64,000 nt of DNA from Myxococcales bacterium (GCA_020633435.1 JACKDP010000001.1:517359-581358); one strand, 5' to 3'; shown: positions 32,647 to 51,302, counted from the first letter of the stretch. The notes: generated from the sequence alone by a model not told the origin. Translations and numbers: made by a program.

Positions 32647-34812
32647 TCACTGGATGATGATGCACCGCCCGTTGAGGCACTCCCGCGAGATGGGACACCG
32701 CGGCCCGCCGCCGCAGAGGCACTGCCCCGCCACGCAGGTGTCCGACCGGAGGTCGCACCCCAGCTCGAAGCCGTCGCCCTCGTCGACCGTGCCGTCGCAG
32801 TCGTCATCGGCGTTGTTGCAGTCCTCGCCCGAGGGCCCCCGCCCGGAGCACGCGCCGTAGACGCCATCCCGGCACACCTGCTCGCCTACCGTGCACACGC
32901 CGACGTCCGTCCCGCAGGGCCGCACCAGCGCCTCGTCGGTGCTGCCGTCGCAGTCGTCGTCCACGCCGTTGCAGGTCTCGGCGGGTACCGCGCCGCACTG
33001 CCCGCAGGCGTTCAGCGTGCCCTCGTCGGTCTGCCCGTCGCAGTCGTCATCGGCCCCGTTGCAGATCTCGTCTGGCACCCGGCCACAGGCGCCGCAGGCG
33101 TTCTGCACGCCCTCGTCCGTGCGCCCGTCGCAGTCGTCGTCGTCTCCGTTGCAGGTCTCCTCCGGCACCGCCCCGCAGTCGCCGCAGGCGTTCTGGACGC
33201 CCTCGTCCGTGCGCCCGTCGCAGTCGTCATCGACGCCGTTGCACGCCTCCGCGACGGGCCCCGTCTCGCCCTGGCACGCCCCCCAGCCGCCGCCATCGCA
33301 GGCCTCCTGGCCCTGCCGGCACCGCCCGACGCTGCTCCCGCACGCCCGCACGAGCCCCTCGTCCGTCCGCCCGTCGCAGTCGTCATCAACCCCGTTGCAG
33401 GCCTCCTGCCGCCCCGTCACCTCGCCCTCGCAGGCGCCGTAGCCCCCGCCGACGCAGCGCTGCACGCCCTGCCGGCACCGGCCCACGTCGCTGCCGCACG
33501 CGCGGTCCAGCCCCTCGTCCACGGCGCCGTCGCAGTCCTGGTCGCGCGCGTCGCAGGTCTCGGGCATCGGCCCCACCTGCCGCGCGCAGGCCCCGAACTG
33601 GTGATCCTGGCCGCAAGTCCGCGTTCCGGCTCGACAAATCCCCACGTCGGGCGCCCCCGGCCCCTCGTAGCAGGCCACCGTGTCGCCCGGGGTGCACCGG
33701 CACTGGCCGCCCTCGTCCACCGCGCCGTCGCAGTCGTCATCCTCGCCGTTGCACGCCTCCGGCCCCGGCACCACCGCGCCCTCGCAGCCGGCGCCGCACA
33801 CGGCCAGGCCGGGCCGGCACGCCCCCACCCCCGACGTCCCGTCGGGCCCCGGGTAGCACGGCACCGGCTCATCCACGACGCCGTCGCAGTCGTCGTCCTC
33901 GCCGTTGCACACCTCCACGGCCGCCTCCCCAGCCGCCGCCGTGCAGGCCACCTCGCCCTCCACGCACGCCGTCTCGCCCGCCACCGCGCAGGCCCCGACG
34001 CCGACCTCGCAGGGCTGCCCCACGCCGAAGTCCTCGTCCACCCGGCCATCGCAGTCGTCGTCCAGCCCGTTGCACGCCTCGTCCGTCGGCGCCCCCGGCT
34101 CGCCGTCGCACACGAGCCCGTCCGGCGTGCACCGCGGCCGCCCCTCCCGAGCGCAGGCCCCCACCCCCACCGGGCAGAGCGCCTCCGGATCCAGCACCGC
34201 CTCGTCCGTCCGCCCGTCGCAGTCGTCATCGGCGCCGTTGCAGCGCTCGTCCGCCGGCGGCACCTCCCCCTCGCAGGCCCCGAAGCGCATGGACGGCCCG
34301 CACCGCTGCTCGCCGGCCTGGCAGACGCCCACGCCGGCCTCCCCCGGCGCCCCCGAGAAGCAGGCCTGCCGGGTGCCGGGCTCGCAGGGCGCGCAGTCCA
34401 CCTCGTCCACCCGCCCGTCGCAGTCGTTGTCCACCTCGTCGCAGATCTCGGTGAGCGGCCGCTGGGCCCCCGCGCAGTCCCCCAGCCGGGCGTCCACGCA
34501 GGCGCGGATCCCCGCCCGGCAGATGCCGGTGCCCGCCTCGCTCGGCCCGCACCGCTGGTCGGCGTCCTCGTCCACCTCGCCGTCGCAGTCGTCGTCGAGC
34601 CCGTTGCAGGCCTCGGGCGGGCAGGCCGCCGCGTCGGGCCCCTGGTCCACCGGCGCCGCGTCGGCCACCGCGCCCTGGTCGGCCGGCGCCGGATCGCGCA
34701 CATGCCCCCCGAGCCCGCTGCGGAGCGCGTCGCCATCCGCCGTGCAGCCCGCGACCCAGACCGCCAGCAGGCAAAGCGCCCACCCCCTCCCGCCCCTGCG
34801 CACATCCGTCAC
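32647..34812 (-). CDS. MopE-like Cys-rich repeat lipoprotein
   Basis: Lipobox LLAVWVAGC; at least 14 repeats of CNGxDDDCDGxxDE. GTG start chosen at 34812 (GGGAG 7 nt upstream); 34803 is also possible. Confidence 0.7.
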   Translation of the reverse strand: MTDVRRGGRGWALCLLAVWVAGCTADGDALRSGLGGHVRDPAPADQGAVADAAPVDQGPDAAACPPEACNGLDDDCDGEVDEDADQRCGPSEAGTGICRAGIRACVDARLGDCAGAQRPLTEICDEVDNDCDGRVDEVDCAPCEPGTRQACFSGAPGEAGVGVCQAGEQRCGPSMRFGACEGEVPPADERCNGADDDCDGRTDEAVLDPEALCPVGVGACAREGRPRCTPDGLVCDGEPGAPTDEACNGLDDDCDGRVDEDFGVGQPCEVGVGACAVAGETACVEGEVACTAAAGEAAVEVCNGEDDDCDGVVDEPVPCYPGPDGTSGVGACRPGLAVCGAGCEGAVVPGPEACNGEDDDCDGAVDEGGQCRCTPGDTVACYEGPGAPDVGICRAGTRTCGQDHQFGACARQVGPMPETCDARDQDCDGAVDEGLDRACGSDVGRCRQGVQRCVGGGYGACEGEVTGRQEACNGVDDDCDGRTDEGLVRACGSSVGRCRQGQEACDGGGWGACQGETGPVAEACNGVDDDCDGRTDEGVQNACGDCGAVPEETCNGDDDDCDGRTDEGVQNACGACGRVPDEICNGADDDCDGQTDEGTLNACGQCGAVPAETCNGVDDDCDGSTDEALVRPCGTDVGVCTVGEQVCRDGVYGACSGRGPSGEDCNNADDDCDGTVDEGDGFELGCDLRSDTCVAGQCLCGGGPRCPISRECLNGRCIIIQ

Positions 34813-34924
34813 GACAGCACTCCCAAGCCTCCGCGCCCCATGGTATCGCTCGCCCGACTCTTTGCCACGGGTCGCGGGTCCGGTACCTTGGGCCCCCACC
34901 CCCAGGCCCCATGGAGGCGAGCAC

Positions 34925-36016
34925 GTGCAGCTCGGGGACGTCTTCGAGCAGGCCGAGGCGGCCGCCGCCCCCGCGGCCCCCCGCCGCCCCCGGCGCTGGC
35001 GCCGCTGGCTGGCCGCCGCCGCCGCGCTCGCCCTGGGCGGCGCCCTCTGGCGCCACGGCCCCGGCGTCGCCCTCGCCGAGCCCGGCGACCTGCTCGTGCT
35101 GACGAACGACACCGGCCTCGACCTCTTCGGCCCGCCCGTCGAGGTGGTCGTGGGCGGCGACACCCCGGTCTTCTACGTGCCCGTGGCCCGCCACGCCTAC
35201 GTGCTCAGCCCGCGCCCCCGCGTGCCCGACCCCGTCCGCCTCACCGCCCTCTCGGCGGAGGGCGTGCCCGTCACGCTGGTGGACACCGCCGTCACGTACC
35301 GCGTCGACCGCGAGGACGCCGGCCTCGTCTTCACCACCCTCGGCGTCGACGCCGCCACCTGGGACGCCCACGCCCGGGCCGCCCTCGCCGCCTGCTGGAG
35401 CGAGGCCATCGCCGCCCGCGGCGCCGGCTGGCTGGCCCGCGAGACGCCCGTGAGCCTGCTGCCCAGCGTGCAGGAGGCCCTGCGCACCCGGCTCAAGCCG
35501 TTGACTTTGCAGGAGATTCGCCCGCCCACCTGGTCCATCGCCCCCGAGCTGCGCGCCGCCCTCGAGGCCGAGGCCGAGGCCGACGCCGCCGAGGCCGCCG
35601 ACGAGAAGGCCCGCACCGAGGCCGAGGCCCAGCGCGCCCTGCGCCGCCAGGCCACCGAGCAGCAGGCCGGCCGGCCTCGGCGCCGCCGGGCCGACGGCCG
35701 CGCCGCCATCGAGGCCGCCCGCACCCGGGCCGCCGAGCGCCTCGCCTGGCCCGCCAGACCATCGCCGACGCCGCCGCCGTGGCCGAAGTCGAGCGCGAGG
35801 GCCTGCTGCGCCGCGCCGAGGCCATCCAGGCCCGCGCCCCCCTCGAGGCCGAGGCCATGAAGGCCCGCGTCGACGCCCTGCGCCAGGACGGCCCGGCCTT
35901 GCTGGACCACCTCATCGCCACCCGCATCCTGCCCCAGCTCGCCCGCGTGCGGGCCGGCCGCCCGGCGCCGCCCGCCGCCCCGCGTCCGCCCCGTCCGCCG
36001 CCCCGGAGAGCGCGCC
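34925..36016 (+). pseudogene. HflK-like SPFH/band-7 gene with apparent frameshift(s)
   Basis: GTG 34925 with GGAGG RBS; SPFH-like sequence in one frame, then the sensible reading continues in another frame from about 35750; 3' end uncertain. Confidence 0.4.
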
Positions 36017-36923
36017 ATGAGGATCCTCGGCCCCCTCCTGGGCGTCACCGTCCTCGGCGGCAGCCTCTTCGCCCTGGCCCTGGCCCCCGTCCCCCCGGGC
36101 CACACCGGCACCCGGGACGCCGAGCGCCTGGCGCCGGGCCTGCACCTGCACGCCCCGCAGCTCTTTGAGGTCGTGGCCACCCCCGAGGGCGCCCCCACCC
36201 TGCTCGGCCGCCCCGGCACCGAGCCCCCGGTGCGCGTCGAGACGGCCAGCGGCGCCGTCTTCCTGGACGTCGCCGCCCGCGGCCCGTGGACGCCGACGCC
36301 CTGCGCGCCGCACTGGCGAAGGGCCTCGCCGACGCCGACGCCGCCACCCTGCGCGACCCCCGGGCCCTGCGCGCCCGCGTCCGCAAGGCCGCCGCCCCCG
36401 TCGCCGCCGACCTGCTGGGCGTCTCGCGCCCCCCGGCCCTCGCCGCCCGCGACCTCGACGGCCACCTGCAGCACCTCATCGCCGACGCCGCCGAGCGCCA
36501 GACGCGCCTGGGCGCCCGCGCCGAGGCCCGCCGCCAGGCCGCCGAAGCCGAGGAGGCCGACCTGGCCGCCCGCGCCGCCACCGAAGAGCGCACCCGCGCC
36601 GCCCTCCGCGCCGAAGCCGAGGCCGAGGCCGCCCGCCCGTCGCCGAGGCTGACGCCGAGGCCGCCCGCCTGCTCGCCCAGGCCGAGGCCGACCGCGCCCG
36701 CGCCGCCGCCGACGCCGAGCTCGCCCTCGCCCGCGCCGAAGCCGACCGCGACGCCCGCCTGGCCGCCGCCCTCAGCGGCGAAGGCGCCCGCTACCACGCC
36801 GCCATCGAAGCCGCCCGCCGCTTCGAGCTCGGCGACACCCAGCTCGAGACCCAGGATCCAGAATTCTTGAGGAAGTTCGGCAGCATGGAAGCCTGGCGCC
36901 GCTTCTTCCTCGGCGACCGCTGA
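36017..36923 (+). pseudogene. HflC-like gene with two apparent frameshifts
   Basis: N-terminus MRILGPLLGVTVLGG in one frame, middle and HflC-like C-terminus (QDPEFLRKFGSMEAWRRFFLGDR) in two other frames; switches near 36290 and 36640. Confidence 0.4.
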
Positions 36924-36933
36924 CGGAGCACCC

Positions 36934-37512
36934 ATGGCCCGCACCCCCTCGACCATGATCGCCCTGGGCACCCCCTGCCCCGACTTCGCCCTCCCCGACA
37001 CCGACGGCCGCACCGTCCGCCGCGACGACTTCGCCGACGCCCCGGCCCTGCTCGTCATGGTCCTCTGCAACCACTGCCCCTTCGTCGTGCACCTGCGCAG
37101 CGCCCTCGCCGCCTTCGGCCGCGAGTACCAGGCCCGCGGCCTCGCCATCGTGGCCCTCAACGCCAACGACGCCGACGCCTACCCCGCCGACGCCCCCGCC
37201 CAGATGCCCGCCGAGAAGGCCAGCGCCGGCTACACCTTCCCCTACCTGCACGACGCCACCCAGACCACCGCCCGCGCCCTCGGCGCCGCCTGCACCCCTG
37301 ACTTCTTCCTCTACGGCCCTGACCGCACGCTCATCTACCGCGGCCAGTTCGACGCCAGCCGCCCCGGCAACAGCGAGCCCATCACCGGCCAGGACCTGCG
37401 CGCCGCCTGCGACGCGGCGCTGGCGGGGGTGGAAGTGAGCGCCGAGCAGTGGCCGAGCCTGGGCTGCAACATCAAGTGGAAGCCGGGGAACGAGCCCTCA
37501 TATTTCGGGTAG
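36934..37512 (+). CDS. thioredoxin-fold (redoxin-family) protein; 3' end is the element insertion site
   Basis: CxxC motif LCNHCPF; last codons ...NIKWKPGNEPSYFG overlap the left att repeat. Confidence 0.7.
   Translation: MARTPSTMIALGTPCPDFALPDTDGRTVRRDDFADAPALLVMVLCNHCPFVVHLRSALAAFGREYQARGLAIVALNANDADAYPADAPAQMPAEKASAGYTFPYLHDATQTTARALGAACTPDFFLYGPDRTLIYRGQFDASRPGNSEPITGQDLRAACDAALAGVEVSAEQWPSLGCNIKWKPGNEPSYFG
37467..37496. repeat. attL: 30-bp direct repeat, left copy
   Basis: caacatcaagtggaagccggggaacgagcc, 29/30 identical to 53289-53318. Confidence 0.8.
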
Positions 37513-37643
37513 TTACGGGCCCATGGCAGGCGTCTGTACAGCCAAATCGGGCCATTTCCAGCCCGAAACCTGTACAACCTGTACAGCGAGATCGTGGTCG
37601 CTCCTCAACTCGTGCCAGGGCGGGATCACCTTCCTTGGGCTCC

Positions 37644-38348
37644 TCACGCCAGCTTCCCGGCCAGGGCGACCAACCAGTCCAGATAGAGGTCGAGGCGGGA
37701 TGTGCCGTTGACCTTGGTTCGCAGGAACTTCCCGAGGCTGTTCACCCCGCGCTCGCTCCGGCCCATGTCCCTGATCGTTGCGTCTCCTCCGACGGCGATG
37801 AGCCCGTCGTTCATCGTCGCCTTCGAGGCAGGACTGCGATGAGCCATGAAGTTCCGCATGGCCTTCACCGCATCAAAGGCGAGTCCGTCCGATGCTGTCA
37901 GCGCCGCGATCTTCGCCCGGTACGTCGGCGCCAGGCGTTGATCCGCTCGCTGCTTGAACGTCTCGAAGTCCTTGAACGAGAGGTTCCACCCATCGGGGTC
38001 GAGGATGCTCCTGAGATCGGTGAGCTTGACGTGCTTGCCGGGCTCGAACTCCACGGCGCCCGCGTGCCAGGCACCGAACTTGTCTGTGATCGAGGTGCGG
38101 ATGCGGTTCTTCTCGTGGGCGATGAAGCCGCTTGCATCCTTGTTGATGGCGGCGAGAACCCAGTCAGACAGGAACGTCTCCAACCCTACCGCTGCTGCCA
38201 GCAACGTGTTCTCGGCCAACGTCGCGATGTCCGTCTTCTCGTGGGCCGTGCCGCTCAAGGACGTGCTGACGCGGTTGTAGTACACCTTCAAGTCCCCGAG
38301 ATCCGCGGCGTAGCCCTGAGCCACCTCCGTCGGGTTCGCCTTGTTCAT
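37644..38348 (-). CDS. HEPN-like (Abi2-type) protein, candidate abortive-infection RNase
   Basis: 234 aa from internal ATG with GGAGGG RBS; RNxxxH motif (MRNFMAHR). Confidence 0.5.
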   Translation of the reverse strand: MNKANPTEVAQGYAADLGDLKVYYNRVSTSLSGTAHEKTDIATLAENTLLAAAVGLETFLSDWVLAAINKDASGFIAHEKNRIRTSITDKFGAWHAGAVEFEPGKHVKLTDLRSILDPDGWNLSFKDFETFKQRADQRLAPTYRAKIAALTASDGLAFDAVKAMRNFMAHRSPASKATMNDGLIAVGGDATIRDMGRSERGVNSLGKFLRTKVNGTSRLDLYLDWLVALAGKLA

Positions 38349-38423
38349 CAGCCCTCCATCCGTCCCCGTCCGCGCACATGCTGCCGTTGGCGAGCCTATA
38401 GCAGTCGGTCTGTGGAGGTCCAA

Positions 38424-38762
38424 GTGCCCACAGCTTCTCAAGTCGAACTCGATGAGCCCGACCGCCGGATCGACGCGCTGATCGACTACTTCGCCGACGA
38501 CGGCGACGACGCCCTCCGGGCATGGGCCGTAGAGGCCCTCGCTGGCGGCCTGGGCGTAGATGCAGTTGTCGTCGAGGGGGAGAGTGCGGCCCGGCGCCTT
38601 CGGGCGCTAGGGGACGCCCTGGGGGGCCGCCTGGCGCTCGCCATCTACCAGACGCCCGAGCAAGGCCCGAGGCTGGTCGAGGCCGTGCTGGAAGGGCTGC
38701 TGGTGGGCCTGCGGGACGGCCCGCCCGAGCCGGTCAGTGAGGTCGTGCGGCGCGGCCTGTGA
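38424..38762 (+). CDS. small hypothetical protein
   Basis: GTG with GGAGG RBS 5 nt upstream; 3' end overlaps the convergent gene by about 28 nt. Confidence 0.3.
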   Translation: MPTASQVELDEPDRRIDALIDYFADDGDDALRAWAVEALAGGLGVDAVVVEGESAARRLRALGDALGGRLALAIYQTPEQGPRLVEAVLEGLLVGLRDGPPEPVSEVVRRGL

Positions 38763-39357
38763 TGGCGTCGAACGCGGCGCCCTGCAAGTAGACGCCGCTG
38801 ATCCAGAAGTCGGCCAGCTTGTCGCCGTCCCAGTCGGACTCCACGAGCCGCGCCTTGACCAGGGTGCCGTCCTCCGCGAGCCGGTCGCGCAGCGCAACGC
38901 GACCCGCGAGGTCGAGTTCCGAGAACGTCGCCGACATCTCGGGGCTGACCGACATCAGACCGAACGAGAACTGCCCGATCTCGCCCATGACCGTGTAGAG
39001 ATCGAGGCCCATCGCGGGGACGGCGGCCAGCACCAGCAGGTCGGCTTCGACGGGATCGAGGCCATGCTCCTCACGCAGGTTGACCAGCGGCAGCGCAACC
39101 CCCGCCGCGGCGCTCGCCGCGATCCGGCGGTCGATCATGGTGCGCAGGTTGCCCTCCGCGGTGGCGAGGCGGGCGACCTTCTGCTTCGTCCGGCAGCACA
39201 CGCCGTCGGACTCCGCCGCGGCGTCGATCAGCCCCACGGCCTCGTCGGCTTCCTTGTCCGCCTCGATGCGGGCGCCAAGGTGGCGGCACCTGGCCTTCAC
39301 CCACCGGATCTCGTCCGCGAGGTGGTCGAGGGGGGTCGAGTACGCGAGGGTGTGCAT
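38734..39357 (-). CDS. hypothetical protein
   Basis: 207 aa from ATG 39357 with AAGGAG RBS; no recognisable motif. Confidence 0.45.
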   Translation of the reverse strand: MHTLAYSTPLDHLADEIRWVKARCRHLGARIEADKEADEAVGLIDAAAESDGVCCRTKQKVARLATAEGNLRTMIDRRIAASAAAGVALPLVNLREEHGLDPVEADLLVLAAVPAMGLDLYTVMGEIGQFSFGLMSVSPEMSATFSELDLAGRVALRDRLAEDGTLVKARLVESDWDGDKLADFWISGVYLQGAAFDAITGRAARPH

Positions 39358-39545
39358 GGCGGTGCTCCTTGCTCTCTGGGCCATGCCATCTACTACGCCT
39401 TCGGCCCCAGTCCTGAGCCCCTCCCCCGGCCCCCGGCGGCACCATCACGTCCCGATTTTTCGGGCTTTGACCCCGTTGCGGCGCGTGTCACCGCGCAGTA
39501 CAACCGCTGTGGCAACTTGCGGCAAACAACGGCGAGGACTGCACG

Positions 39546-39749
39546 GTGCCCGAGTACCTGACCATCGACGAGGTTTGCGAGCTTCTCCAGTTGGGCAAGC
39601 GCACCGTGTACGAGCTTGCCCGGACGGGCCGCTTGCCGGGCGCCGCGAAGATCGGCGGCCAGTGGAGGGTCAACCGGGCCAAGCTCGCCGCCTGGCTGGA
39701 GGCCGGGGGCGAGTTCGCCGCGGTCGAGGGGGGCGAGCGCGACGAATGA
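39546..39749 (+). CDS. excisionase/AlpA-family HTH DNA-binding protein
   Basis: LTIDEVCELLQLGKRTVYELARTGRLPGAAKIGGQWRV; stop overlaps the SNF2 start (ATGA). Confidence 0.65.
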   Translation: MPEYLTIDEVCELLQLGKRTVYELARTGRLPGAAKIGGQWRVNRAKLAAWLEAGGEFAAVEGGERDE

Positions 39750-42595
39750 CGACCCCCTACCATGCGCAGTTCTGGGCCTACACGTTGACCGTACAGGGGT
39801 CGCCGGACTCGGTGGACGGCCTGTCGCGGGCCATCTCGAACGCCCGCGTAGACCTGAACCCGCACCAGGTAGACGCAGCCCTGTTCGCCCTCAAGTCGCC
39901 GCTGTCGAAGGGCGTCATCCTCGCCGACGAGGTGGGCCTCGGGAAGACCATCGAGGCCGCCCTGGTGATCTCGCAGCGATGGGCGGAGCGCCGCAGGCAC
40001 ATCCTCGTCGTGGTGCCCGCCTCGCTGCGGAAGCAGTGGCAGCAGGAGTTGTGGGAGAAGTTCTTCATCCCCTCGGTGGTGCTGGAGCGCAAGTCGTGGA
40101 CGCGGCTCCAGGCCGAGGGCAAGCCCAACCCCTTCGACCTCGGCGATCAGGTCGTCATCTGCTCCTACTACTTCGCCGCCAAGCACCGGGAGGCCGTGGC
40201 CCACGTCCCGTGGGATCTGGCCGTCATCGACGAGGCCCACCGGCTGCGAAACGTCTACAAGAAGGGCAACAAGACGGCGAAGGCCCTGTCCGCGGGCCTG
40301 GCCCACGCCACGAAGCTCCTGCTGACCGCGACGCCGCTCCAGAACTCGCTGATGGAGTTGTACGGCCTCGCCAGCGTCATCGACCCGCACCTGTTCGGTG
40401 ACCCCATCTCCTTCCGCGAGCAGTTCGTCCGCGAGGCGGACGAGGGCGTGCGGAACCGGCTGTTGAAGCAGCGCATCGCCGAGGTCTGCCAGCGCACCCT
40501 GCGGCAGCAGGTGCTGGAGTACGTCCGGTTCACGGAGCGCATCCCGGTGACGCAGGAGTTCTTCGCCAGCGACGCCGAGCAGCGGCTCTACGACGAGGTG
40601 TCCGAGTACCTCCGCCGCGACACCCTGTACGGCCTCCCGTCGGCCCAGCGGACGCTGATGACGATGGTGCTGCGGAAGCTGCTGGCCTCGTCGTCCTTCG
40701 CCATCGGCGGCACCCTCGACGGCCTGTTGTACCGCCTCCGGCAAGTGCAAGAGGACGTGCGCAAGGGCACCGCGGTCGCCCTGCACGATGCCGTGGAGGA
40801 CGACTTCGAGACGGTGGACGAGATCGAGGACGACTGGGAGGAGGACGAGGCCACCGACGCCAACGGCGACGACATCGACCCCGCCCTGCTGGCCGACGAG
40901 ATCGCCATCATCGAGGCGTGCTCCAAGCTCGCCGCGGGCATCCATTCCAACGCCAAGGGCGACGCCCTCCTGCGGGCACTCGCGCAGGCGTTCGAGCAGG
41001 CCGAGGCCGTGGGCGCCGCGAAGAAGGCGGTGGTGTTCACGGAGTCCCGGCGCACGCAGGACTACCTGTACCGGCTGCTGACCGCGAACGGCTACGAGGG
41101 CCGCGTCGTGATGATCAACGGCAGCAACAACGACGAGGCCGCCAAGGCCGTCTACGCGGAGTGGATGACCCGGCACGCGGACGACGGGGTGCCCACCGGC
41201 GCCCGCGCCGTCGATGTCCGGGCCGCCATCACCGAAGCGTTCAAGACCGACGCCACCATCCTGCTGGCGACCGAGGCCGCCGCGGAAGGCGTCAACCTCC
41301 AGTTCTGCTCCCTGGTCTTCAACTACGACTTGCCCTGGAACCCCCAGCGGGTCGAGCAGCGGATCGGGCGCTGCCACCGCTACGGCCAGACCCATGACGT
41401 GGTGGTCGTCAACTTCGTCAACGAGCGCAACGCCGCCGACCGCCGCGTCCTCGACCTGCTGTCCGAGAAGTTCAGGCTGTTCGAGGGGGTCTTCGGCGCC
41501 TCCGACGAGGTGCTCGGCGCCATCGAGTCCGGCGTGGACATCGAGCGGCGCATCGCGGCCATCTACCAGGGCTGCCGCACCGCCGAGGACATCGCCGCCG
41601 CCTTCGACGACCTGCGGGCCGACCTCGACGAGCAGATCACCGCGCAGATGAGCGAGACGCGGCAGCGCCTGCTCGACCACTTCGACGAGGACGTGCAGGC
41701 CCGCCTCCGCGTCCACCGCGACCTGGCCCAGGCGTCGCTCGACGAGAGGGGCCGGATGCTGTTGAACCTCACCCGGCACGAGCTTGGGGACGACGCCTCC
41801 TTCGCACCTGACCGGCCCCGGTTCGAGTACCACGGCACCGCGGCTCGTCGCGGGTGGTACAGCCTCGACTGGAAGGCGGCGGACGCCGAGGGCCTGGTCT
41901 TCTACCGCATCGACCACCCCCTCGCGCAGGGCATCGTCGAGCAGGCCCGCCAGCGACAGCTTCCCGTGCAGCACCTGGCCTTCGACTACGGCGCCTACGG
42001 CACGTCGGTCGCGGTGCTGGAGCCGTACATCGGTCGCCGGGGCTGGCTGGCGTGCAGCCTGCTGACGGTGAACTCGGTGGCCGACGAGCAGTTCGTCGTC
42101 CTGGCCGCGGTGACCGACGACGGCGAGGTGCTCGACGCCGAGTGGTGCCGACGCCTCATGCGCATCGGAGCCGCCGCCGAGGGAACGCCCGAGGCGCCCG
42201 CGGATCTGGAGCCCGCGGTCACCGGCCAGGTCGAAGGCCACCTGCGCGACGTGGAGGCCCGCAACGGGCGCTACTTCGACGCCGAGGTGTCGAAACTCGA
42301 CCGCTGGTCAGACGACCTCAAGCTCGGCCTGGAGCGGGAGTTGAAGGACTTGGACGCCGAGATCCGGGCGAAGCGCAAGGAGTCCGCGGTCGCCATCTCA
42401 CTGGCGGACAAGCTCACGGCGCAGCGGGACATCAAGGCGCTGGAGCAGCGCCGGAACCGCAAGCGGCGGGATCTGTACGAGGAACAGGACAAGATCGACG
42501 AGCAACGGGCAGCACTCATCGACGGGATCGAGCGGCAGCTTCGCACCACACATGCGGTGCAGCGCCTGTTCACCGTCCGGTGGAGCATCCGATAG
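39746..42595 (+). CDS. SNF2-family helicase
   Basis: 949 aa: LADEVGLGKTIEA (motif I), VIDEAHRLRN (DEAH), LLLTATPLQNSL, C-terminal helicase motifs and coiled-coil tail. Confidence 0.85.
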   Translation: MTTPYHAQFWAYTLTVQGSPDSVDGLSRAISNARVDLNPHQVDAALFALKSPLSKGVILADEVGLGKTIEAALVISQRWAERRRHILVVVPASLRKQWQQELWEKFFIPSVVLERKSWTRLQAEGKPNPFDLGDQVVICSYYFAAKHREAVAHVPWDLAVIDEAHRLRNVYKKGNKTAKALSAGLAHATKLLLTATPLQNSLMELYGLASVIDPHLFGDPISFREQFVREADEGVRNRLLKQRIAEVCQRTLRQQVLEYVRFTERIPVTQEFFASDAEQRLYDEVSEYLRRDTLYGLPSAQRTLMTMVLRKLLASSSFAIGGTLDGLLYRLRQVQEDVRKGTAVALHDAVEDDFETVDEIEDDWEEDEATDANGDDIDPALLADEIAIIEACSKLAAGIHSNAKGDALLRALAQAFEQAEAVGAAKKAVVFTESRRTQDYLYRLLTANGYEGRVVMINGSNNDEAAKAVYAEWMTRHADDGVPTGARAVDVRAAITEAFKTDATILLATEAAAEGVNLQFCSLVFNYDLPWNPQRVEQRIGRCHRYGQTHDVVVVNFVNERNAADRRVLDLLSEKFRLFEGVFGASDEVLGAIESGVDIERRIAAIYQGCRTAEDIAAAFDDLRADLDEQITAQMSETRQRLLDHFDEDVQARLRVHRDLAQASLDERGRMLLNLTRHELGDDASFAPDRPRFEYHGTAARRGWYSLDWKAADAEGLVFYRIDHPLAQGIVEQARQRQLPVQHLAFDYGAYGTSVAVLEPYIGRRGWLACSLLTVNSVADEQFVVLAAVTDDGEVLDAEWCRRLMRIGAAAEGTPEAPADLEPAVTGQVEGHLRDVEARNGRYFDAEVSKLDRWSDDLKLGLERELKDLDAEIRAKRKESAVAISLADKLTAQRDIKALEQRRNRKRRDLYEEQDKIDEQRAALIDGIERQLRTTHAVQRLFTVRWSIR

Positions 42596-42603
42596 GAGCG
42601 GGG

Positions 42604-44427
42604 ATGTCGAAGAAGACGAAGCTGGAACTGACCTGGATCGGCAAGGACAAGCGGCCCCGCCTGGAGCCGCGCATCCTGCTCGAAGATCCCGAACTGAGCT
42701 ACGCCGCCGACCATCGGGTTCGGCAGGGCGACATCTTCGACAACATGCTGATCCACGGAGACAACCTGCTGGCTTTGAAGGCGCTGGAGCAGGACTTCAC
42801 CGGCGCCTTCAAGTGCGTCTACATCGACCCTCCGTTCAACACCCAGCAGGCGTTTGAGCACTACGACGATGGCGTGGAGCACTCGGTCTGGCTGTCACTC
42901 ATGCGCGAGCGCCTCTCCATCGTCCACCGGCTCATGCACCCCGAGGGGACGCTGTTCGTCCACATCGACGACAACGAGCTTGGCTACCTGATCGTCCTCC
43001 TCGACGAGGTGTTCGGGCGCACCAACCGCGTGTCCATCGTCACATTCAAGCAGGGCTCGGCGACCGGCCACAAGGCCATCAACCCCGGCTGCGTGACGAC
43101 CACGAACTTCGTGCTGATGTACGCCAAGGACAAGGCAGCCTGGAAGCCGCGGAGGGTCTTCACGGCTAGGGAGCGAGACAATCGCTACAACCAGTTCATT
43201 CCGAACATCGGCGACCACCACTCCAAGTGGCGAATCGTGACGCTGATGACCGCCTTCGCCGCCAGCCAGGGGGTCACGGAGACACAGGCCAGGGGTCTGG
43301 CTCGCAAGCAGCCCGACCAACTGGACGAGTTCGTGAAGGACAACGGGCCGAGCGTGGTGCGTCTCGCAAGGCCGTCCTACGACGCCGTCAGCAAGGCTGC
43401 CCAGGCGCTCATCGACGAGTCGAACGCGAACCCCGAAGTGGTGTTCCACCTCCCGCGGGAGGGGCACAAGGACTTCTACTTCATCCGGGGCGAACGAATC
43501 CTGTTCTACAAGGACAAGCTCAGGGAGATCGACGGGCAGTACGTTGCGGGTGAGCCGCTCACGACGCTCTGGGACGACCTCCTCTCCAACAACTTGCACA
43601 ACGAAGGTGGGGTCAGCTTCCCCAAGGGGAAGAAGCCCGAAGCCCTGATCAAGAGGGTCATCGACCTGTCCACCGAGCCCGGTGACTGGGTGCTCGACTC
43701 GTTCGCAGGCTCGGGCACGACGGGGGCGGTGGCCCACAAGGCCGGTCGAAGGTGGGTGATGGTCGAACTCGGTGACCACTGCCATACCCATGTCCTTCCC
43801 CGGCTCCGAGCGGTTATTGACGGGGCCGATTCCAGCGGGAGCACGCAGGCAACCCGATGGAAAGGCGGCGGCGGCTTCCGCTTCTGCCGCCTCGCGCCCT
43901 CCCTACTGGAGGAGGACAAGTGGGGCAACTGGGTCATCAACCGGGCCTACAACAAGGAGATGCTGGCGGAGGCCATGTGCAAGATCGAGGGCTTCCGCTA
44001 CGAGCCGAGCCCGACCATCTTCTGGATGCACGGCCAGTCCACCGAGACGGACTACCTCTACGTCACCACGCAGACCCTGACCCACGAGCAGTTGCAGGTC
44101 ATCAGCGCGGAGGTCGGTGACGAGCGCACGTTGCTCATCTGCTGCTCGGCCTTCCGAGCGCGGCTCGACCAGTTCCCGAACCTCACGGTGAAGAAGATCC
44201 CCGCAGCGGTGCTCGAACGCTGCGAGTGGGGCAAGGACGACTACTCGCTGAACGTCCAGACGGTCATGGGAGAGGAGCCCGAGGCGCCCGAGCCTGAACC
44301 CGACCAGTCCGCGGGCGCCACCGTGCCGCCGCCATCGTCGAAGAAGCGCAAGGGCCGCAAGCCGAAGATGCAGGAGTTGCCGCTGTTCGCCGCGGCCCAC
44401 CATGGCAAGTCGGGAGGTGACCAGTGA
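42604..44427 (+). CDS. Type III R-M Mod-like N6-adenine DNA methyltransferase
   Basis: DPPF motif (CVYIDPPFNT) precedes the SAM motif (VLDSFAGSGTTG). Confidence 0.85.
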   Translation: MSKKTKLELTWIGKDKRPRLEPRILLEDPELSYAADHRVRQGDIFDNMLIHGDNLLALKALEQDFTGAFKCVYIDPPFNTQQAFEHYDDGVEHSVWLSLMRERLSIVHRLMHPEGTLFVHIDDNELGYLIVLLDEVFGRTNRVSIVTFKQGSATGHKAINPGCVTTTNFVLMYAKDKAAWKPRRVFTARERDNRYNQFIPNIGDHHSKWRIVTLMTAFAASQGVTETQARGLARKQPDQLDEFVKDNGPSVVRLARPSYDAVSKAAQALIDESNANPEVVFHLPREGHKDFYFIRGERILFYKDKLREIDGQYVAGEPLTTLWDDLLSNNLHNEGGVSFPKGKKPEALIKRVIDLSTEPGDWVLDSFAGSGTTGAVAHKAGRRWVMVELGDHCHTHVLPRLRAVIDGADSSGSTQATRWKGGGGFRFCRLAPSLLEEDKWGNWVINRAYNKEMLAEAMCKIEGFRYEPSPTIFWMHGQSTETDYLYVTTQTLTHEQLQVISAEVGDERTLLICCSAFRARLDQFPNLTVKKIPAAVLERCEWGKDDYSLNVQTVMGEEPEAPEPEPDQSAGATVPPPSSKKRKGRKPKMQELPLFAAAHHGKSGGDQ

Positions 44428-47400
44428 ACCGCCTCGTCAACACCATCTCGGGTCGTCTGAGCCTCCGGCCCCCGCAGCGCCAGTCGCTGGAGATCCTCGA
44501 CCGCATCTGCGAGATCGCTGACCCGACCAAGGCGACCGATCTCGCAACCGCGCTCGGGATCATCAAGTCCGAGTACCCGTCGGTCACCGACTTCGAGCGG
44601 GACTTCCCCTCGCTGTGCTTCGCCCTCGCCACCGGCGTCGGCAAGACCCGGCTCATGGGCGCCTTCATCAGCTACCTCTACCTGACCAAGCGAAGCCGCC
44701 ACTTCTTCGTGCTGGCGCCCAACCTGACCATCTACAACAAGCTGATCGCCGACTTCACCCCCGGCACGCCCAAGTACGTCTTCCAGGGGATCTCGGAGTT
44801 CGTGACCGCCCCGCCGGTCATCATCACCGGCGACAACTACGAGAGCGGCGTCGGCGTCCGAGAGGAGGCCCGGCGCCAGATGGGCCTGTTCCGGCCCGGC
44901 GGCGAGGATGCCGTCCACATCAACGTCTTCAACATCAGCAAGTTCAACAAGGACACGGGGGGCAGGAAGGGCTCGCCCAGGATGCGGCGCCTGTCGGAGT
45001 ACATCGGTGAGAGCTACTTCGACTACCTGGCCGGGCTCGACGACCTGGTGGTGCTCATGGACGAGGCCCACCGCTACCGCGCCGACGCGGGTATGAAGGC
45101 CATCAACGAGTTGAAGCCCATCTTGGGCCTGGAGTTGACGGCGACCCCCTTCACCGAGTCGGCGAAGGGGCCGGTGGCCTTCGGCAACGCCATCTACGCC
45201 TACTCGCTGGCCGAGGCCATCGTGGACGGGTTCGTGAAGGAGCCCGCGGTCGCCACCCGCAAGGACTTCGACGCCAGCCAACTCGACGACGCGAAGTTGG
45301 AACGCATCAAGCTGGAGGACGGCGTGCGCTTGCACGAGCAGGTCAAGGCCGACCTCCAAGCCTACGCCGCCAACACCGGGCGCCCCTACGTCAAGCCGTT
45401 CATGCTGGTCATCGCCCGCGACACGACGCACGCCTCGGCCCTGATCGACCTGTTCAAGTCCGAGACGTTCTTCGAGGGGCGCTACGCCGACCGCGTGATC
45501 GAGGTTCACTCGGCCCTCAAGGGCGAGGAGAAGGAGGAGACGGTTGAGCGGCTGCTGGCCGTGGAAGACCCCGCCGAGCAGACGGAGATCGTCATCCACG
45601 TCAACATGCTCAAGGAGGGGTGGGACGTAACGAACCTCTACACCATCGTCCCGCTGCGGGCCGCCAACGCCCGCACCCTCATCGAGCAGTCCATCGGTCG
45701 CGGCCTGCGGCTGCCCTACGGCAAGCGTGTCCGCAAGTACGGCCTGCCCCCCACCCACCCTGCCGACCGGCTCACCATCGTCGCCCACGACAAGTTCCAA
45801 GAGATCGTGGACGAGGCCAACCGCGGTGACTCCATCATCCGCCGCATCGACACCATCTACATCGACCCGGAGGAGGCCGCCGACGCTCCGAAGCCGGTCG
45901 AGGTGCCCCCGCTGGTCGAGCAGATTCTTGGCGGAGCCGACCGGCCTACGGTGCCGGGCCTCGGCCCCGCCCCCGCGGGTGACCCGGCCCAGGGCACCGC
46001 CCCCACCCTGCCGACCAAGAAGACGCCGACGTTCCTGACGCCCACGGCGAAGGCGGTGGCGAAGGCGACGCTGACGGCGATCACCAAGAAGACCACGTTG
46101 CCGTCGGCGAAGACGCTTCTGCAACCGGAGCAGCAGAAGAAGCTGGTCGAGGAGGTGAAGGCGCAACTTCCCGACCAGCAGGAGCTACCGGGCATCGAGT
46201 CGGAGATCGAGGAGGTCGTCAAGCAGGCCACCGAAGCCTACGTTGACCTCTCCATCGACATCCCCGAGGTGACCGTCGTGCCCACCGGCGAGGTCACCAT
46301 CGTCTACGCCGACTTCGACCTCGACACGTCCAAGCTGCCTGCGCTCCAGCCCGTCGAGCGGGACATCTACATCCAACACCTGGCGAGCCACGAGCAGCAG
46401 CAGTTGTCTTCCGGCGGTGGTGGTGTCGGCTACGAGCGGCGCCTGGAAGATCACGTTGTCCGGGCGCTCATCGACTTCGACGACGTGGACTACGACGGCA
46501 ACGCCGACCTGCTCTACAAGCTCGCGGGCCAGATGGTCGCCCACCTCCAGGGCTACCTGCCCGACGAGGAGGCCGTGAAGAACGTGCTGGTCTACTACCA
46601 GTCGCGGATCGGCAACCTCGTCCACGGCCAGATGCTGGCCCACCGGCACGAGTTGACGACCGGCTACGAGGTGAAGGTGCTGTCCGGGCACCGTCCGCTC
46701 CAGCCCTCGGTGATCAAGCTCAAGCCGAGCGAGTCCCCCCGGAACTTCCGGGCGCCGGTGGACGACAAGCGCCGCATCCCGCAGATGGTGTTCGGCGGCT
46801 TCTCGAAGTGCTTGTACCCGCTCCAGAAGTTCCACTCGGACTCGGAGCGCCGGTTCGCGGTGCTGCTGGAGATGGACAAGGCCGTGCAGAAGTGGGTGAA
46901 GCCTGCGCGGGCGAACTTCCAGATCGTCCTCAAGGGCGGCTCGCTCTACGAGCCGGACTTCGTGGTCGAGGCCGACGACGCCTTCTACATCGCCGAGGTC
47001 AAGGCCGAGGGCATGGTGCAGGAGGCCGACGTGCTGGCGAAGGCCGAGGCCGCCGCGGTGTGGTGCAGGTCGGCGACGCAGGAGGGGGCGGGCGCCAAGC
47101 CCTGGCACTACCTGCTCATCCCCGCGGACAAGATCGCCGAGAACGCCTCGTTGGCGTGGCTGGCGAAGCAGTACGAGCACAAGGCCAGCGCCCCCGCCGA
47201 GGTCGTGTCCGAGGACGCGGGCGCCAAGGTGCTGCCGTTCAAGAAGCTGGAGGGCACGGAGATCAGGCCCTTCGAGAACTGCGTGCCGCTCTACGCCGAC
47301 CTCAGGATCGCCGCGGGCCGCTTCGGCGAGGAGCTGGCCGTGGACGCGGTGCCCCAGCAGGGCGAGGTGGAGAACCCCGAGGACTACGAGTGGGTCGCCT

Positions 47401-47744
47401 ACCGGGGGAGTTCCCGGCCCCGTCGCGGCCTGTTCGTAGCCCAGGTGGTCGGCGAGTCCATGAACAAGCGCATCCCCAACGGCGCCTGGTGCGTGTTCAA
47501 CCTCGAACACGGGGCCGATGGCGAAGGTGAGATCGTCCTCGCCCGGCACGACGAGATCCACGACGGCGACCTCGGCCAGTTCACCGTGAAGTTCTACCAG
47601 CGCGAGGTGCTCGACGACGACGGCGTGCGGATCACGCTGCGGCCCTCGTCCAGCGACCCGCAGTTCAAGAAGCCCATCGTGCTGGAGAACCTGGCCGAGG
47701 GCGACCTGCGGATCGTGGCCGAGTTCGTCGAGGTGCTGCGGTAG
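44424..47744 (+). CDS. Type III Res-like helicase-endonuclease fused to a LexA/UmuD-like S24 domain
   Basis: 1106 aa: Walker A (ATGVGKTRL), DEAH (VLMDEAHRY), PD-(D/E)xK-like nuclease motif (EPDFVVEADDAFYIAEVKAEG), then about 150 aa resembling an S24 peptidase (GESM, TVKF); GTG overlaps Mod stop. Confidence 0.8.
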   Translation: MNRLVNTISGRLSLRPPQRQSLEILDRICEIADPTKATDLATALGIIKSEYPSVTDFERDFPSLCFALATGVGKTRLMGAFISYLYLTKRSRHFFVLAPNLTIYNKLIADFTPGTPKYVFQGISEFVTAPPVIITGDNYESGVGVREEARRQMGLFRPGGEDAVHINVFNISKFNKDTGGRKGSPRMRRLSEYIGESYFDYLAGLDDLVVLMDEAHRYRADAGMKAINELKPILGLELTATPFTESAKGPVAFGNAIYAYSLAEAIVDGFVKEPAVATRKDFDASQLDDAKLERIKLEDGVRLHEQVKADLQAYAANTGRPYVKPFMLVIARDTTHASALIDLFKSETFFEGRYADRVIEVHSALKGEEKEETVERLLAVEDPAEQTEIVIHVNMLKEGWDVTNLYTIVPLRAANARTLIEQSIGRGLRLPYGKRVRKYGLPPTHPADRLTIVAHDKFQEIVDEANRGDSIIRRIDTIYIDPEEAADAPKPVEVPPLVEQILGGADRPTVPGLGPAPAGDPAQGTAPTLPTKKTPTFLTPTAKAVAKATLTAITKKTTLPSAKTLLQPEQQKKLVEEVKAQLPDQQELPGIESEIEEVVKQATEAYVDLSIDIPEVTVVPTGEVTIVYADFDLDTSKLPALQPVERDIYIQHLASHEQQQLSSGGGGVGYERRLEDHVVRALIDFDDVDYDGNADLLYKLAGQMVAHLQGYLPDEEAVKNVLVYYQSRIGNLVHGQMLAHRHELTTGYEVKVLSGHRPLQPSVIKLKPSESPRNFRAPVDDKRRIPQMVFGGFSKCLYPLQKFHSDSERRFAVLLEMDKAVQKWVKPARANFQIVLKGGSLYEPDFVVEADDAFYIAEVKAEGMVQEADVLAKAEAAAVWCRSATQEGAGAKPWHYLLIPADKIAENASLAWLAKQYEHKASAPAEVVSEDAGAKVLPFKKLEGTEIRPFENCVPLYADLRIAAGRFGEELAVDAVPQQGEVENPEDYEWVAYRGSSRPRRGLFVAQVVGESMNKRIPNGAWCVFNLEHGADGEGEIVLARHDEIHDGDLGQFTVKFYQREVLDDDGVRITLRPSSSDPQFKKPIVLENLAEGDLRIVAEFVEVLR

Positions 47745-47766
47745 ACCGGCATGTAGGAGAAAGGAC

Positions 47767-48168
47767 GTGAAGCAAGAGAACCTTGACGACCTCGTCGCCG
47801 CGGTGCTGGCCGTCAACAGCTACTCCATCGAGAAGGCGTGGGCGCTTCTCCCAAAGCTGCGTGAGGCAGGGCTGACGACGCCTGTGACCTTCCCTACGGA
47901 TCTCGGACCGGCGACCGTCAAGCTCGCGTCGGCGGGGTACGACCGCGGGTTGCTCACGGAGATGTTCGCCAAGCGCCTGCTCGGCCTCATGCAGGAGGCC
48001 GGGTCCGGGGCGCTGGACGAACTGGACGCCTTCGTCGAGGCCGACCGCAAGGACGACGCGGTGGCTCTGCTGGTGACCGTGCCGGGGATCGGCCCGAAGG
48101 TGGCCCGGACCGCCTGGGAGTTGCTCCGTTCGGGACGGGGCGCAGCGGGCGCAGCGAGCAAATCCTGA
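47767..48168 (+). CDS. small hypothetical protein with helix-hairpin-helix-like motif
   Basis: GTG with AGGAGA RBS; VTVPGIGPKVA resembles an HhH. Confidence 0.45.
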   Translation: MKQENLDDLVAAVLAVNSYSIEKAWALLPKLREAGLTTPVTFPTDLGPATVKLASAGYDRGLLTEMFAKRLLGLMQEAGSGALDELDAFVEADRKDDAVALLVTVPGIGPKVARTAWELLRSGRGAAGAASKS

Positions 48169-48245
48169 TCCCTTAGTTTCGAGCATTACTTGGGGTGAGG
48201 GATTTGCTCGCTTGCCTGGGTAGCGTGCCTCGCAGGAGGTGCAAC

Positions 48246-49553
48246 ATGCCCAACTTCCCGAGCCGCATCGACATCGCCAACTCGCCCGAGTATTTCCCGA
48301 TCACGGCGCTCATCGCCGCGGGCCTGTGGCCCGACCTGACTCCGCCCGCCAAGGCCCTGCTGCCCGTCCTGTGGGACTTCCACCGGGAGTACCCCGACGC
48401 CTGCCACCCGAACCGGAAGACCCTCGCCCGGCTGTCGGGCATCAGCCCGCCCTCCGTGTCGAACGCCCTGACGGTGCTGGAGGACATCGGCATCGTGCAG
48501 ACGATCCAGACGCCGGGGCCGAGGCCGAACACCTACAAGCTCAAGTGGACGAATCTCCGGGCGCCGAAGAAGGCTGCCGCCGACACCGGATCGCCCTACC
48601 GGCGTCCGAGTGCGGACTGGGAACTGCACATGGGGACTGACGCCGAGGGCCATGCGGTCGCCAAGTACGAGCGCAAGGGGGGTGGGCTCCACCGCATGTC
48701 CGACGGCTGCTTCATCCGGGGCCAGGTCGAGATGGTGATCCACGACCTGCTCGTGGCCTGGGGCGTTCCCCACTGGTCGGAGGTCGGGTACTGCGACCTC
48801 GGCATCAAGCTCCGGCACGCGAAGTCCGGCGACCTCAACCGGCAGGCCACCGTGGACTTCGTGGTGGCGCCGGGCTTGCTCGTCGAGCGCCTCGGCCTGC
48901 CAGCGACCCAGGGGTCGGCGAAGAAGTACCGGGCCAAGTCCGCCGCGAAGATGAAGGCCGCCCGGAAGGCCGGGTGGACGGTGCTGACCATCGAGCCTGA
49001 CCAGCGGCCCGGCGACTGGCTGCTGGAGCCCATCAGGAAGGCGTGGGCCGACGCGACCATCGACGAGGCGACCCGCCTCCGGCGGCTCCTCCAAGGCGCT
49101 GGGAAGCACGAGGAGTCGCACGGTCCGAGCCGGAAGCTCGACGCCCACATCGAAGATGCGAAGGCCCGGCTGGCGGGCAAGAAGGAGCCCCGCAAGAGCC
49201 GCGGCCTGACCATGCAGAAGCGCGGCGAACATGGGTTCCCCGTGACGTACCGCTGCGACCCCATCATCGTGCTGATGGAGCAGGCCCGCCCCGCACCCGA
49301 GCCCGAGGATGACCTCGACGACTGGTTCGACGAGGTGCCGAGCGCCTACGAGCCGCAGCGCCCGCCCGACCTGCCCGCTCCCGACGAGAGGATGCTCGGG
49401 CGGCTCCGCGACCTGGACGACGAGATCGCCGACCTCGACGACCAGATGGCGGCCCTCGACGATGACAGCGACGACTACCAGGCCCTGCTGACGCAGAAGT
49501 GGGAACTCGAAGGGAAGAAGGGCGACCTGGAGGCCCAGTGCTACATGCGGTGA
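48246..49553 (+). CDS. hypothetical protein with N-terminal winged-helix-like region (possible replication/maintenance function)
   Basis: AGGAGG RBS before ATG 48246; HTH-like NRKTLARLSGISPPSVSNALTVLEDIGIV; acidic C-terminal tail. Confidence 0.45.
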   Translation: MPNFPSRIDIANSPEYFPITALIAAGLWPDLTPPAKALLPVLWDFHREYPDACHPNRKTLARLSGISPPSVSNALTVLEDIGIVQTIQTPGPRPNTYKLKWTNLRAPKKAAADTGSPYRRPSADWELHMGTDAEGHAVAKYERKGGGLHRMSDGCFIRGQVEMVIHDLLVAWGVPHWSEVGYCDLGIKLRHAKSGDLNRQATVDFVVAPGLLVERLGLPATQGSAKKYRAKSAAKMKAARKAGWTVLTIEPDQRPGDWLLEPIRKAWADATIDEATRLRRLLQGAGKHEESHGPSRKLDAHIEDAKARLAGKKEPRKSRGLTMQKRGEHGFPVTYRCDPIIVLMEQARPAPEPEDDLDDWFDEVPSAYEPQRPPDLPAPDERMLGRLRDLDDEIADLDDQMAALDDDSDDYQALLTQKWELEGKKGDLEAQCYMR

Positions 49554-49744
49554 GGGTGCCTCGACGCGGTGCCCGCTTCGGCCTCCCGCTCGCGCACGAC
49601 CGCTTCGAGGTCGTACCGGACGGCGCCGCGGAGCCTCACCACGGGGATCTGCCCGTCCCGAGTCATGCGGCGGACCGTCGAGAGGCTCACGCCGAGGGCG
49701 TCTGCAAGCTCCGTGGCGGTGAGCAGGCGGTGCATGTTGCTCAT
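49541..49744 (-). CDS. excisionase-family HTH protein
   Basis: 67 aa from ATG with GGGGAGG RBS; LLTATELADALGVSLSTVRRMTRDGQIPVVRLRGAVRY. Confidence 0.6.
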   Translation of the reverse strand: MSNMHRLLTATELADALGVSLSTVRRMTRDGQIPVVRLRGAVRYDLEAVVREREAEAGTASRHPHRM

Positions 49745-49990
49745 GTTGGCCTCCCCGGAAGTCGAGTCCATGCACAGATCGCGGCCCATAGGACGACCAA
49801 CCGGGTCGAAACGGTCAGCGACGGTCACACAGTCGCCGCCGCGGCCTCGGGGCGTCCAGAACCGTCGCTGCGGATGGTTCTCGCCGGGCCAACCGTGGGG
49901 GTTGGGACGCCGAACGGTGGGGGTTGGCCGAAGGTAGGTGGATTCGGCCCGGTGCGGCCCGCGGGGTTGTGGCCCGCGGACATGCGCGGT

Positions 49991-50629: not shown

Positions 50630-50690
50630 CCCGTCCTCCGCGTCGTCTCCCCCAACTACGGAGTGGGCCGGAAGTCTGAGCCCCGCGGGC

Positions 50691-51298: not shown

Positions 51299-51302
51299 AC
51301 TC

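Follow-up and report, generated by a model that had tools for sequence, protein, structure and literature searches.

Frame disruptions in an SPFH-type gene pair of a Myxococcales genome are very probably consensus errors of a hybrid assembly

Two adjacent genes of a Myxococcales bacterium (GCA_020633435.1) encode sensible protein sequence that repeatedly changes reading frame. Is this gene pair decaying, or is its sequence wrong? The original prediction, made from the sequence alone, had seen three apparent single-base frameshifts at short G/C homopolymers in an HflK/HflC-like pair next to an insertion site and had named both readings, a decaying pseudogene or homopolymer sequencing errors. 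We analysed the pair in the context of a 64-kb window, that is the whole stretch of 64,000 nucleotides JACKDP010000001.1:517359-581358, and all coordinates below are counted from its first letter.

At 73% GC, all six frames of the window contain long open stretches, so that lists of ORFs are by themselves uninformative. We followed the reading frame by the GC content of the third codon position (GC3) and by a seven-state frame tracker, for which the long ORFs of the window itself were the training set and which searched for stops within a margin of ±75 nt. Between 34925 and 36923, the frame in which GC3 reaches 0.95-1.00 shifts on the plus strand without encountering a stop codon. Expressed as (codon start-1)%3, the first gene (gene A) is read in frame 1 from 34925 and in frame 0 from ~35744, followed by a stop in frame 2 at 36018-36020. 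The second gene (gene B) starts in frame 1 with the ATG at 36017, continues in frame 0 from ~36281-36286 and in frame 2 from ~36631-36639, and reaches its stop at 36921-36923. The tracker itself switches at 35744, 35982, 36281 and 36631, and at none of these positions is there a stop of the upstream frame within 75 nt. Combining GC3, the tracker and the alignments described below places four uncompensated switches at ~35744, 35977, 36284 and 36637, with one base missing per site. They all go in the same direction, equivalent to the loss of one base, and the flanking translations join into sensible protein. Both GC3 and the tracker show that the three switches predicted near 35750, 36290 and 36640 were correct to within a few bases. 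The list was incomplete, since it lacked the uncompensated switch at 35977 and a trio of deletions at 35672, 35674 and 35685. The features of the locus are compiled in Table 1.

Table 1. Features of the SPFH-type gene pair and its surroundings, in window coordinates.
Feature	Position	Strand	Evidence and remarks
Gene A, SPFH/Band-7 membrane protein	34925..36020	+	Pfam Band_7; GTG start 34925
Trio of 1-base deletions: T after 35672, C after 35674, C after 35685	35672..35685	+	Alignments with L001 and L011
First uncompensated switch: C lost from CCC, G read as T 3 bp away	35744..35747	+	L001/L011 alignments, tracker
Second uncompensated deletion: CCCCC read as CCCC	35977	+	L001/L011 alignments
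Gene B, membrane-anchored coiled-coil partner, SPFH-derived family	36017..36923	+	Split over three frames; 302 aa repaired
Third switch: one base missing, GGCCC(C)GTGG	36283..36287	+	GC3 profile, tracker; putative exact base
Fourth switch: one base missing, CGCCC(C)GTCG	36636..36639	+	GC3 profile, tracker; putative exact base
Thioredoxin-family (AhpC/TSA) gene, intact, MCB9544683.1	36934..37512	+	Pfam AhpC-TSA 1.6e-16

Applied to all 64 kb, the tracker reports about seven same-strand switches that have no stop close by; four of them lie within the gene pair. The switches flagged at 22084 and 32571 are ordinary gene ends, with stops at ~22006 and ~32647 that fall just beyond the ±75-nt margin. 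Two more flags, at 63751 and 63834, bound a short segment (63752-63834) that encodes a Pro/Ala/Arg-rich linker at a GC content of 0.86 and is ambiguous; a Pfam search of the minus-strand ORFs of 63.0-64.0 kb gave no match. The original statement that such switches occur in none of the other long genes thus essentially holds in the whole-window tracker, the segment 63752-63834 being the only ambiguous case.

When repaired gene A was used as a query, it recovered a protein of 366 aa with 97% identity (P0001), encoded on the Logan contig L001 (SRR15882951), as well as a 312-aa protein from an NCBI MAG. The cluster of P0001 includes P0006, which is also 366 aa long and is encoded on contig L011 (SRR12358675), and P0005 (MCB9544681.1). 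The latter is the sole form in which GenBank has gene A, a truncated 311-aa 'hypothetical protein' (MCB9544681.1 / H6706_02155) that corresponds exactly to window positions 34925-35860. The Logan contig L011 covers window positions 34587-36244 (1,658 bp) and is identical to them but for six positions. Five of these are one-base gaps, all of them on the side of the window (35672, 35674, 35685, 35744 and 35977), without a single insertion; the sixth, 35747, is a mismatch that lies 3 bp away from a gap. The stretches 34587-35671 and 35978-36244 of the window are identical to L011. Four of the five deletions shorten a run of 3-5 C by one C. At all six positions L001 has the same bases as L011, and its only other difference from the window is a substitution at 35066. 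The true size of gene A is 366 aa (1,101 nt), and with 1,096 nt the window is five bases short. If L011 is swapped in for window positions 34587-36244, the translation is exactly P0006, including its end ...SAPSAAPESAP and the ATGA overlap, in which the true stop TGA of gene A (36018-36020) overlaps the ATG of gene B. An independent sequence thus restores a single ORF for gene A. The suspicion of homopolymer sequencing errors is borne out here, as these Illumina-only contigs hold the missing bases of gene A and otherwise match base for base. The comparison comes close to an inspection of read pile-ups.

The five deletions differ in their effect on the protein. The trio at 35672-35685 sums to one codon and restores the frame by itself, so that the window reads QQAG-RPRRR-RADG in place of the true QQAG-LALGAA-RADG. 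Because of this self-restoration, the change from LALGAA to RPRRR is undetectable by any frame analysis. At 35744-35747 the true sequence is CGCCCGGGCCC and the window has CGCCTGGCCC; the sequence originally expected at this site was slightly off, as a C is lost and a G is replaced by a T. The intact protein reads AAERLARARQTIADAAAV over the site. The deletion at 35977, finally, hides the true C-terminus of gene A (...PAPPAAPASAPSAAPESAP) plus its stop codon, and the frame-2 reading ...SAPSAAPESAP, which ends with the stop at 36018-36020, agrees with the C-terminus of P0001 and P0006. The Pfam family Band_7 (PF01145) is matched by the gene A fragment of the window with E=4e-7 and 30.6 bits (cut-off 23.6) and by intact P0006 with 29.2 bits against the same cut-off, profile positions 13-176 of 176 being matched; the next fragment of gene A has a faint match to the flotillin tail of Pfam.

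Gene B can be made whole by two bases. One extra C in the CCC run at 36283-36285 and another in the run at 36636-36638 yield a single ORF of 909 nt (302 aa) with a natural stop, both sites being repaired by inference from orthologues at 60-70% identity. The repaired reading at 36283-36287 is ...FLDVAARGPVDADALRAAL..., and the protein of a sister species (P0003) reads FLDVAATGPVDAEALRATL, running through the 36284 junction in one frame. At 36636-36639 the repaired reading is ...AEAEAARPVAEADAEAARLLAQ..., and an intact homologue (P0004) has the equivalent coiled-coil (...AEADTEAARLLAEAEAEA...) in one frame. Moreover, a single ORF, 227-228 aa long, encodes gene B in short-read contigs of relatives, namely L004 (Logan), L009 and L010 (JGI), and in all three this ORF unites the N-terminal module with the conserved C-terminal module. 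In these relatives gene B also has the ATGA overlap with the end of gene A and is followed by an AhpC/TSA gene (L004 and L010). A scan of species-representative genome contigs with repaired gene B gave 600 pattern stretches, none of which was confirmed, so that these representatives include neither the source genome nor its relatives. Over 36245-36759 there is no near-identical short-read contig, as L001 and L011 end at 36244 and the ENA contigs L005-L008 start at 36760 or beyond. Downstream of this interval, window positions 36760-37921 are 100% identical to the ENA short-read contigs L005-L007, without any indel. They include the thioredoxin-family gene, a conserved neighbour of the pair by which the local accuracy can be judged.

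Two loci of sister MAGs, L002 (GCA_041390005.1) and L003 (GCA_041389985.1), illustrate how this lineage fares with long reads. Gene A is intact at 367 aa in L003, so that the comparison with orthologues yields intact versions of both genes, gene A in L003 and gene B in L004, L009 and L010. Aligned with each other over 18.8 kb, however, L002 and L003 show 337 gap positions vs 348 mismatches, and they carry frameshifts of their own elsewhere in the pair and in the thioredoxin gene, at sites that are not conserved. With indels as numerous as substitutions and a frameshifted thioredoxin gene, both were excluded as references for an intact gene structure. This load of indels and scattered frameshifts shows that long reads generally call the GC-rich DNA of this lineage badly.

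The window can be traced to a putative source MAG, HK-STAS-MYXO-10, with which the 1,738,311-bp contig, the taxonomy, the GC content and the sample agree. This MAG consists of 16 contigs with 7.98 Mb, a GC content of 0.738 and a largest contig of 1,738,311 bp (Liu et al. 2021, Microbiome 9:205, PMC8518188), and is classified as Myxococcota; Bradimonadia; UBA7976; UBA1532 (PMC8518188). It stems from activated sludge of Shatin (Hong Kong) that was read by PromethION, at a mean accuracy of 86.7%, and by HiSeq; long reads were assembled with Flye-meta and binned, and each bin was subjected to a hybrid assembly with Unicycler v0.4.8, run twice (PMC8518188). SRR12358675, the run behind L011, is an Illumina run of the Liu et al. 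2021 study according to the supplementary data of BASALT (PMC10928208). It therefore belongs to the study of the MAG, and L011 is an Illumina-only assembly of the MAG's own sample set. The sample names of the ENA contigs (WANG18-1_SAMN0838...) appear to fit PRJNA432264, a time series from Shatin by the same group that PMC8518188 mentions. The sample is a community, and the Illumina contig could stem from another of its strains, one whose allele is intact. Such an origin is unlikely for L011 because of its 100% identity to the window outside the indels.

We consider it highly probable that the frame disruptions are consensus errors of a Nanopore-based hybrid assembly and that both SPFH-type genes are intact in the organism. 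Across the pair at least seven single bases are missing, and in six of the seven cases a run of 3-5 C has lost one C, if the two bases restored in gene B by comparison with orthologues are counted. The error sites lie at the 93rd-99th percentile of the window's 200-bp GC values, in a stretch of ~1 kb (35.6-36.7 kb) with 80-86% GC. A few other 200-bp windows reach a GC content of at least 0.85, yet errors concentrate here. The pattern resembles the indel errors of R9-era Nanopore and hybrid assemblies in the ~87% accuracy of the reads, the deletion-only differences, the runs of C, the extreme GC content and the ORFs that are restored by repair, and the sister long-read MAGs are damaged in the same way. 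It differs in that it is confined to ~1 kb with base-perfect flanks. This confinement suggests that short-read correction failed locally, for instance at a bridge or where coverage was missing, rather than that the assembly is unpolished in general. Unicycler starts from the short-read graph, whose gaps it closes with consensus sequence from long reads. If the Illumina coverage or the short-read graph failed here, an unpolished Nanopore patch would have remained, and the stretch of 80-86% GC, which encodes Ala/Glu/Arg-rich coiled coils, would have kept Nanopore-type under-calls in the final consensus. Illumina-only contigs from two runs both break at 36244, and this break, together with the lack of near-identical cover over 36245-36759, would fit such a mechanism. 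Within the window, there are no repeated 21-, 25- or 31-mers of the region 34585-37000, so that a local repeat does not explain the break. The organism itself would then have two intact genes of 366 aa and 302 aa, translationally coupled via the ATGA overlap and followed by the thioredoxin-family gene.

The disruptions might instead be real. A 15.8-kb segment with an integrase and a resolvase (37497-53288) adjoins the pair and is absent from the loci of the sister species, and if the strain carried multiple 1-bp deletions, the SPFH pair could be decaying, perhaps after the arrival of this island. That the disruptions cluster in a single pair next to the island speaks for such genuine pseudogenes, as does the fact that the two gene B sites are without a near-identical short-read comparison. 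Neutral pseudogene decay in bacteria, though, produces far more substitutions than indels, and the comparison with the Illumina contigs over 1,658 bp reveals deletions only, with not one independent substitution and none outside the error clusters. All changes go in one direction and sit in short runs of C. After three deletions within 14 bp the frame is back in register, and yet frameshifts resume downstream, a succession that has no selective logic and looks like poor local consensus. Each fragment still has a GC3 of 0.95-1.00, and codon bias has thus not been lost. Furthermore, assembly of an Illumina run from this study yields the intact allele, whereas the truncated allele of gene A is on record from the MAG only and in no short-read assembly on record. 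The idea of a decaying pseudogene beside the island is therefore not supported, and we would assign it a small probability. In a more specific version, seven real 1-base deletions beside a newly arrived 15.8-kb defence/mobile island would reflect a recent, indel-driven inactivation tied to its arrival, with a strain carrying the intact allele co-resident in the sample; this we regard as very improbable.

Two further readings would leave the DNA sequence as it is. The shifts share one direction and sit at runs of C, as might be expected from programmed recoding or phase variation, be it by -1 ribosomal frameshifting, transcriptional slippage or slipped-strand switching at homopolymers. None of the sites, however, has a slippery heptamer of the type X_XXY_YYZ, the runs comprise just 2-5 bases compared with the at least 7 that are typical of phase-variable tracts, and the shift sites are missing from L011, L001 and L003 for gene A and from L004, L009 and L010 for gene B. 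Four to seven such events in two genes would also be unprecedented, which makes recoding exceedingly unlikely. Just as little probability remains for the notion that there are no genes at all and that the sensible protein arises by chance from the long open frames of DNA with 80% GC. It is true that open stretches of hundreds of codons occur here in all six frames, but codon-position periodicity is strong, Band_7 is matched above the Pfam threshold, homologues exist at 97% and 78% identity as well as in ~40 cluster representatives of gene B, and the gene order A-B-thioredoxin is conserved.

Understood as consensus errors of the assembly, the frame disruptions have low biological weight and are useful as a matter of quality control. 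In the GenBank record of the MAG, the conserved SPFH pair is lost and the truncated MCB9544681.1 stands in its place. Counts of pseudogenes, pangenomes and analyses of gene loss that include this MAG would read such patches as decay, and the same misreading threatens GCA_041390005.1 and GCA_041389985.1, which are more error-rich still. Hybrid assemblies can thus be base-perfect for tens of kilobases and nevertheless contain short uncorrected Nanopore patches in coiled-coil genes of extreme GC content.

A by-product of the analysis is an uncharacterised family of SPFH partner proteins with ~40 cluster representatives. Scanning 1.84 billion representatives by HMMER with P0004 identified 40 relatives of gene B. 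Common to them are a membrane helix at the N-terminus, a V-P-x-G-H start, a long helix rich in Ala and Glu, and a strongly conserved C-terminus with the motif GGRxxxAIEAARxFxLGxxxLxxxxPxFLxxFGSxxAWRxFFLG (in short ...AIEAARxFxLG...FGSxxAWRxFFLG). The gene order A-B-thioredoxin recurs. Eight of the 28 relatives that were scanned match Pfam Band_7 (best 1.8e-17), and repaired gene B, P0004 and the homologue from L009 had no Pfam match. The AlphaFold model of P0004 (pLDDT 89.5) predicts a transmembrane helix, five short strands, a helix of 110 residues and a small helical end. Foldseek searches of the PDB with the model of the gene B family returned nothing at E<1, the top-ranking structures being prohibitin, stomatin and HflK/C cages, and searches of PDB sequences with genes A and B gave just coiled-coil noise and a faint match to prohibitin-2.

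How does the pair relate to known SPFH systems? Judged from their sequences, gene A belongs to the SPFH family and gene B probably to a family derived from it, but the pair is not HflK/HflC. The original comparison with HflK/HflC is a fair analogy, given the Band_7/SPFH domain of gene A; as an assignment it goes too far, since neither protein reaches the cut-off of the NCBIfam models for HflK/HflC (TIGR01933, TIGR01932 and NF008259). Gene A does not match them, and the C-terminal fragment of gene B scores 13.9 bits vs 427 (NF008259) and 9.8 bits vs 134.4 (TIGR01932). With HflK/HflC of E. coli, which cages FtsH, the pair shares adjacent co-directional genes whose products are N-terminally anchored and have long coiled coils. 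Gene A has the SPFH domain, the C-terminus of gene B has the faint match to HflC, and the family of gene B includes Band_7-positive members. In contrast to HflK/HflC, gene B of this lineage is without most of the SPFH domain, according to the AlphaFold model of P0004, and the conserved neighbour is a thioredoxin-family gene; neither ftsH nor hflX was seen beside the pair (for ftsH, in the window and in L003).

Like flotillins (FloT/FloA, YqiK), gene A has both an SPFH domain and a region of Ala/Glu-rich repeats. The matches are weak, with E=0.0014 and 19 bits vs a cut-off of 27 for the Flot tail of Pfam and E=0.024 and 13.7 bits vs a cut-off of 700 for FloT of NCBIfam, and gene A differs from FloT in being shorter and in having a dedicated partner gene. 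The family of gene B, in turn, has its top-ranked matches by Foldseek and by sequence among the SPFH cages of the prohibitin/stomatin/erlin type (8rrh_B prohibitin-2, stomatin and 7vhq HflK/C), which are non-significant (E>0.3 by sequence, E>1 by fold) and offer a lead only. By analogy with other SPFH pairs, the products of genes A and B probably co-assemble and form a membrane scaffold.

The two Illumina-only contigs that are near-identical to the window, which derive from two separate runs (SRR15882951 and SRR12358675), both break off exactly at base 36244 of the window. For 36245-36759, the searched collections yielded no near-identical short-read contig, nor did we find a repeated 21-31-mer in the window that accounts for the contig break at 36244.

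The long-read loci of the sister species, L002 (GCA_041390005.1) and L003 (GCA_041389985.1), differ from each other over 18.8 kb by 337 gap positions versus 348 mismatches. Frameshifts in L002 and L003 affect the SPFH pair, that is the SPFH/Band-7 membrane protein (gene A) and its coiled-coil partner (gene B), as well as the thioredoxin gene. In both loci gene B ends out of frame in an identical way, with the sequence ...QAAEAEASPSPPAPPTPTAPAPPCAPKPG. Neither locus can serve as a reliable reference for whether genes are intact. Within the window itself, the frame tracker detected two more stop-less frame switches on the minus strand (63752-63834), where the GC content of a 200-bp interval is 0.86. 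They fall in a Pro/Ala/Arg-rich linker, downstream of the short motif GDVIQIGDQRVRV, which looked FHA-like by eye; a Pfam search with the minus-strand ORFs of 63.0-64.0 kb gave no match. The switches could mark a further patch that escaped correction, or else stem from noise of the tracker in sequence of low complexity.

The sister-species loci also lack a segment of ~15.8 kb (37497-53288), their synteny picking up at 53289. This segment has a lower GC content (0.64-0.70) and resembles a mobile island devoted to defence or restriction. Its left junction is backed by three short-read contigs with 100% identity up to 37921. A tRNA gene was not found within the 64-kb window. Close to the right end of the island, in a stretch without coding periodicity, is a tandem array (53642-54711) which is built from a 138-bp unit (7.8 copies, 89% matches), and which is also contained in L002 and L003. 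The counterparts of the upstream divergent gene in these two loci show weak or faint matches to the Pfam family Cu-binding_MopE.

Features of the upstream divergent gene and of the putative island segment (window positions)
Feature	Position	Strand	Remarks
Upstream divergent gene	32647-35163	minus	~838 aa, many Cys-rich CNGxDDDCDGxxDE repeats
Winged-helix protein			inside island segment
SNF2-family helicase	39746-42595		inside island segment
N6/N4 DNA methylase	42598-44427		inside island segment
ResIII helicase-S24 peptidase fusion	44424-47744		inside island segment
Resolvase	49991-50629	minus	inside island segment
Tyrosine integrase	52069-53202		inside island segment

The family of gene B (36017-36923) has no name; it counts ~40 representatives at the level of 50% identity, among them the intact homologue P0004 and the further members P0010-P0048. 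The family architecture comprises a membrane helix, an SPFH domain that is reduced to varying degree and a long helix, and its C-terminal motif, AIEAARxFxLG...FGSxxAWRxFFLG, is highly conserved. In the lineage of the window, ~57 aa are inserted relative to the 227-aa forms.
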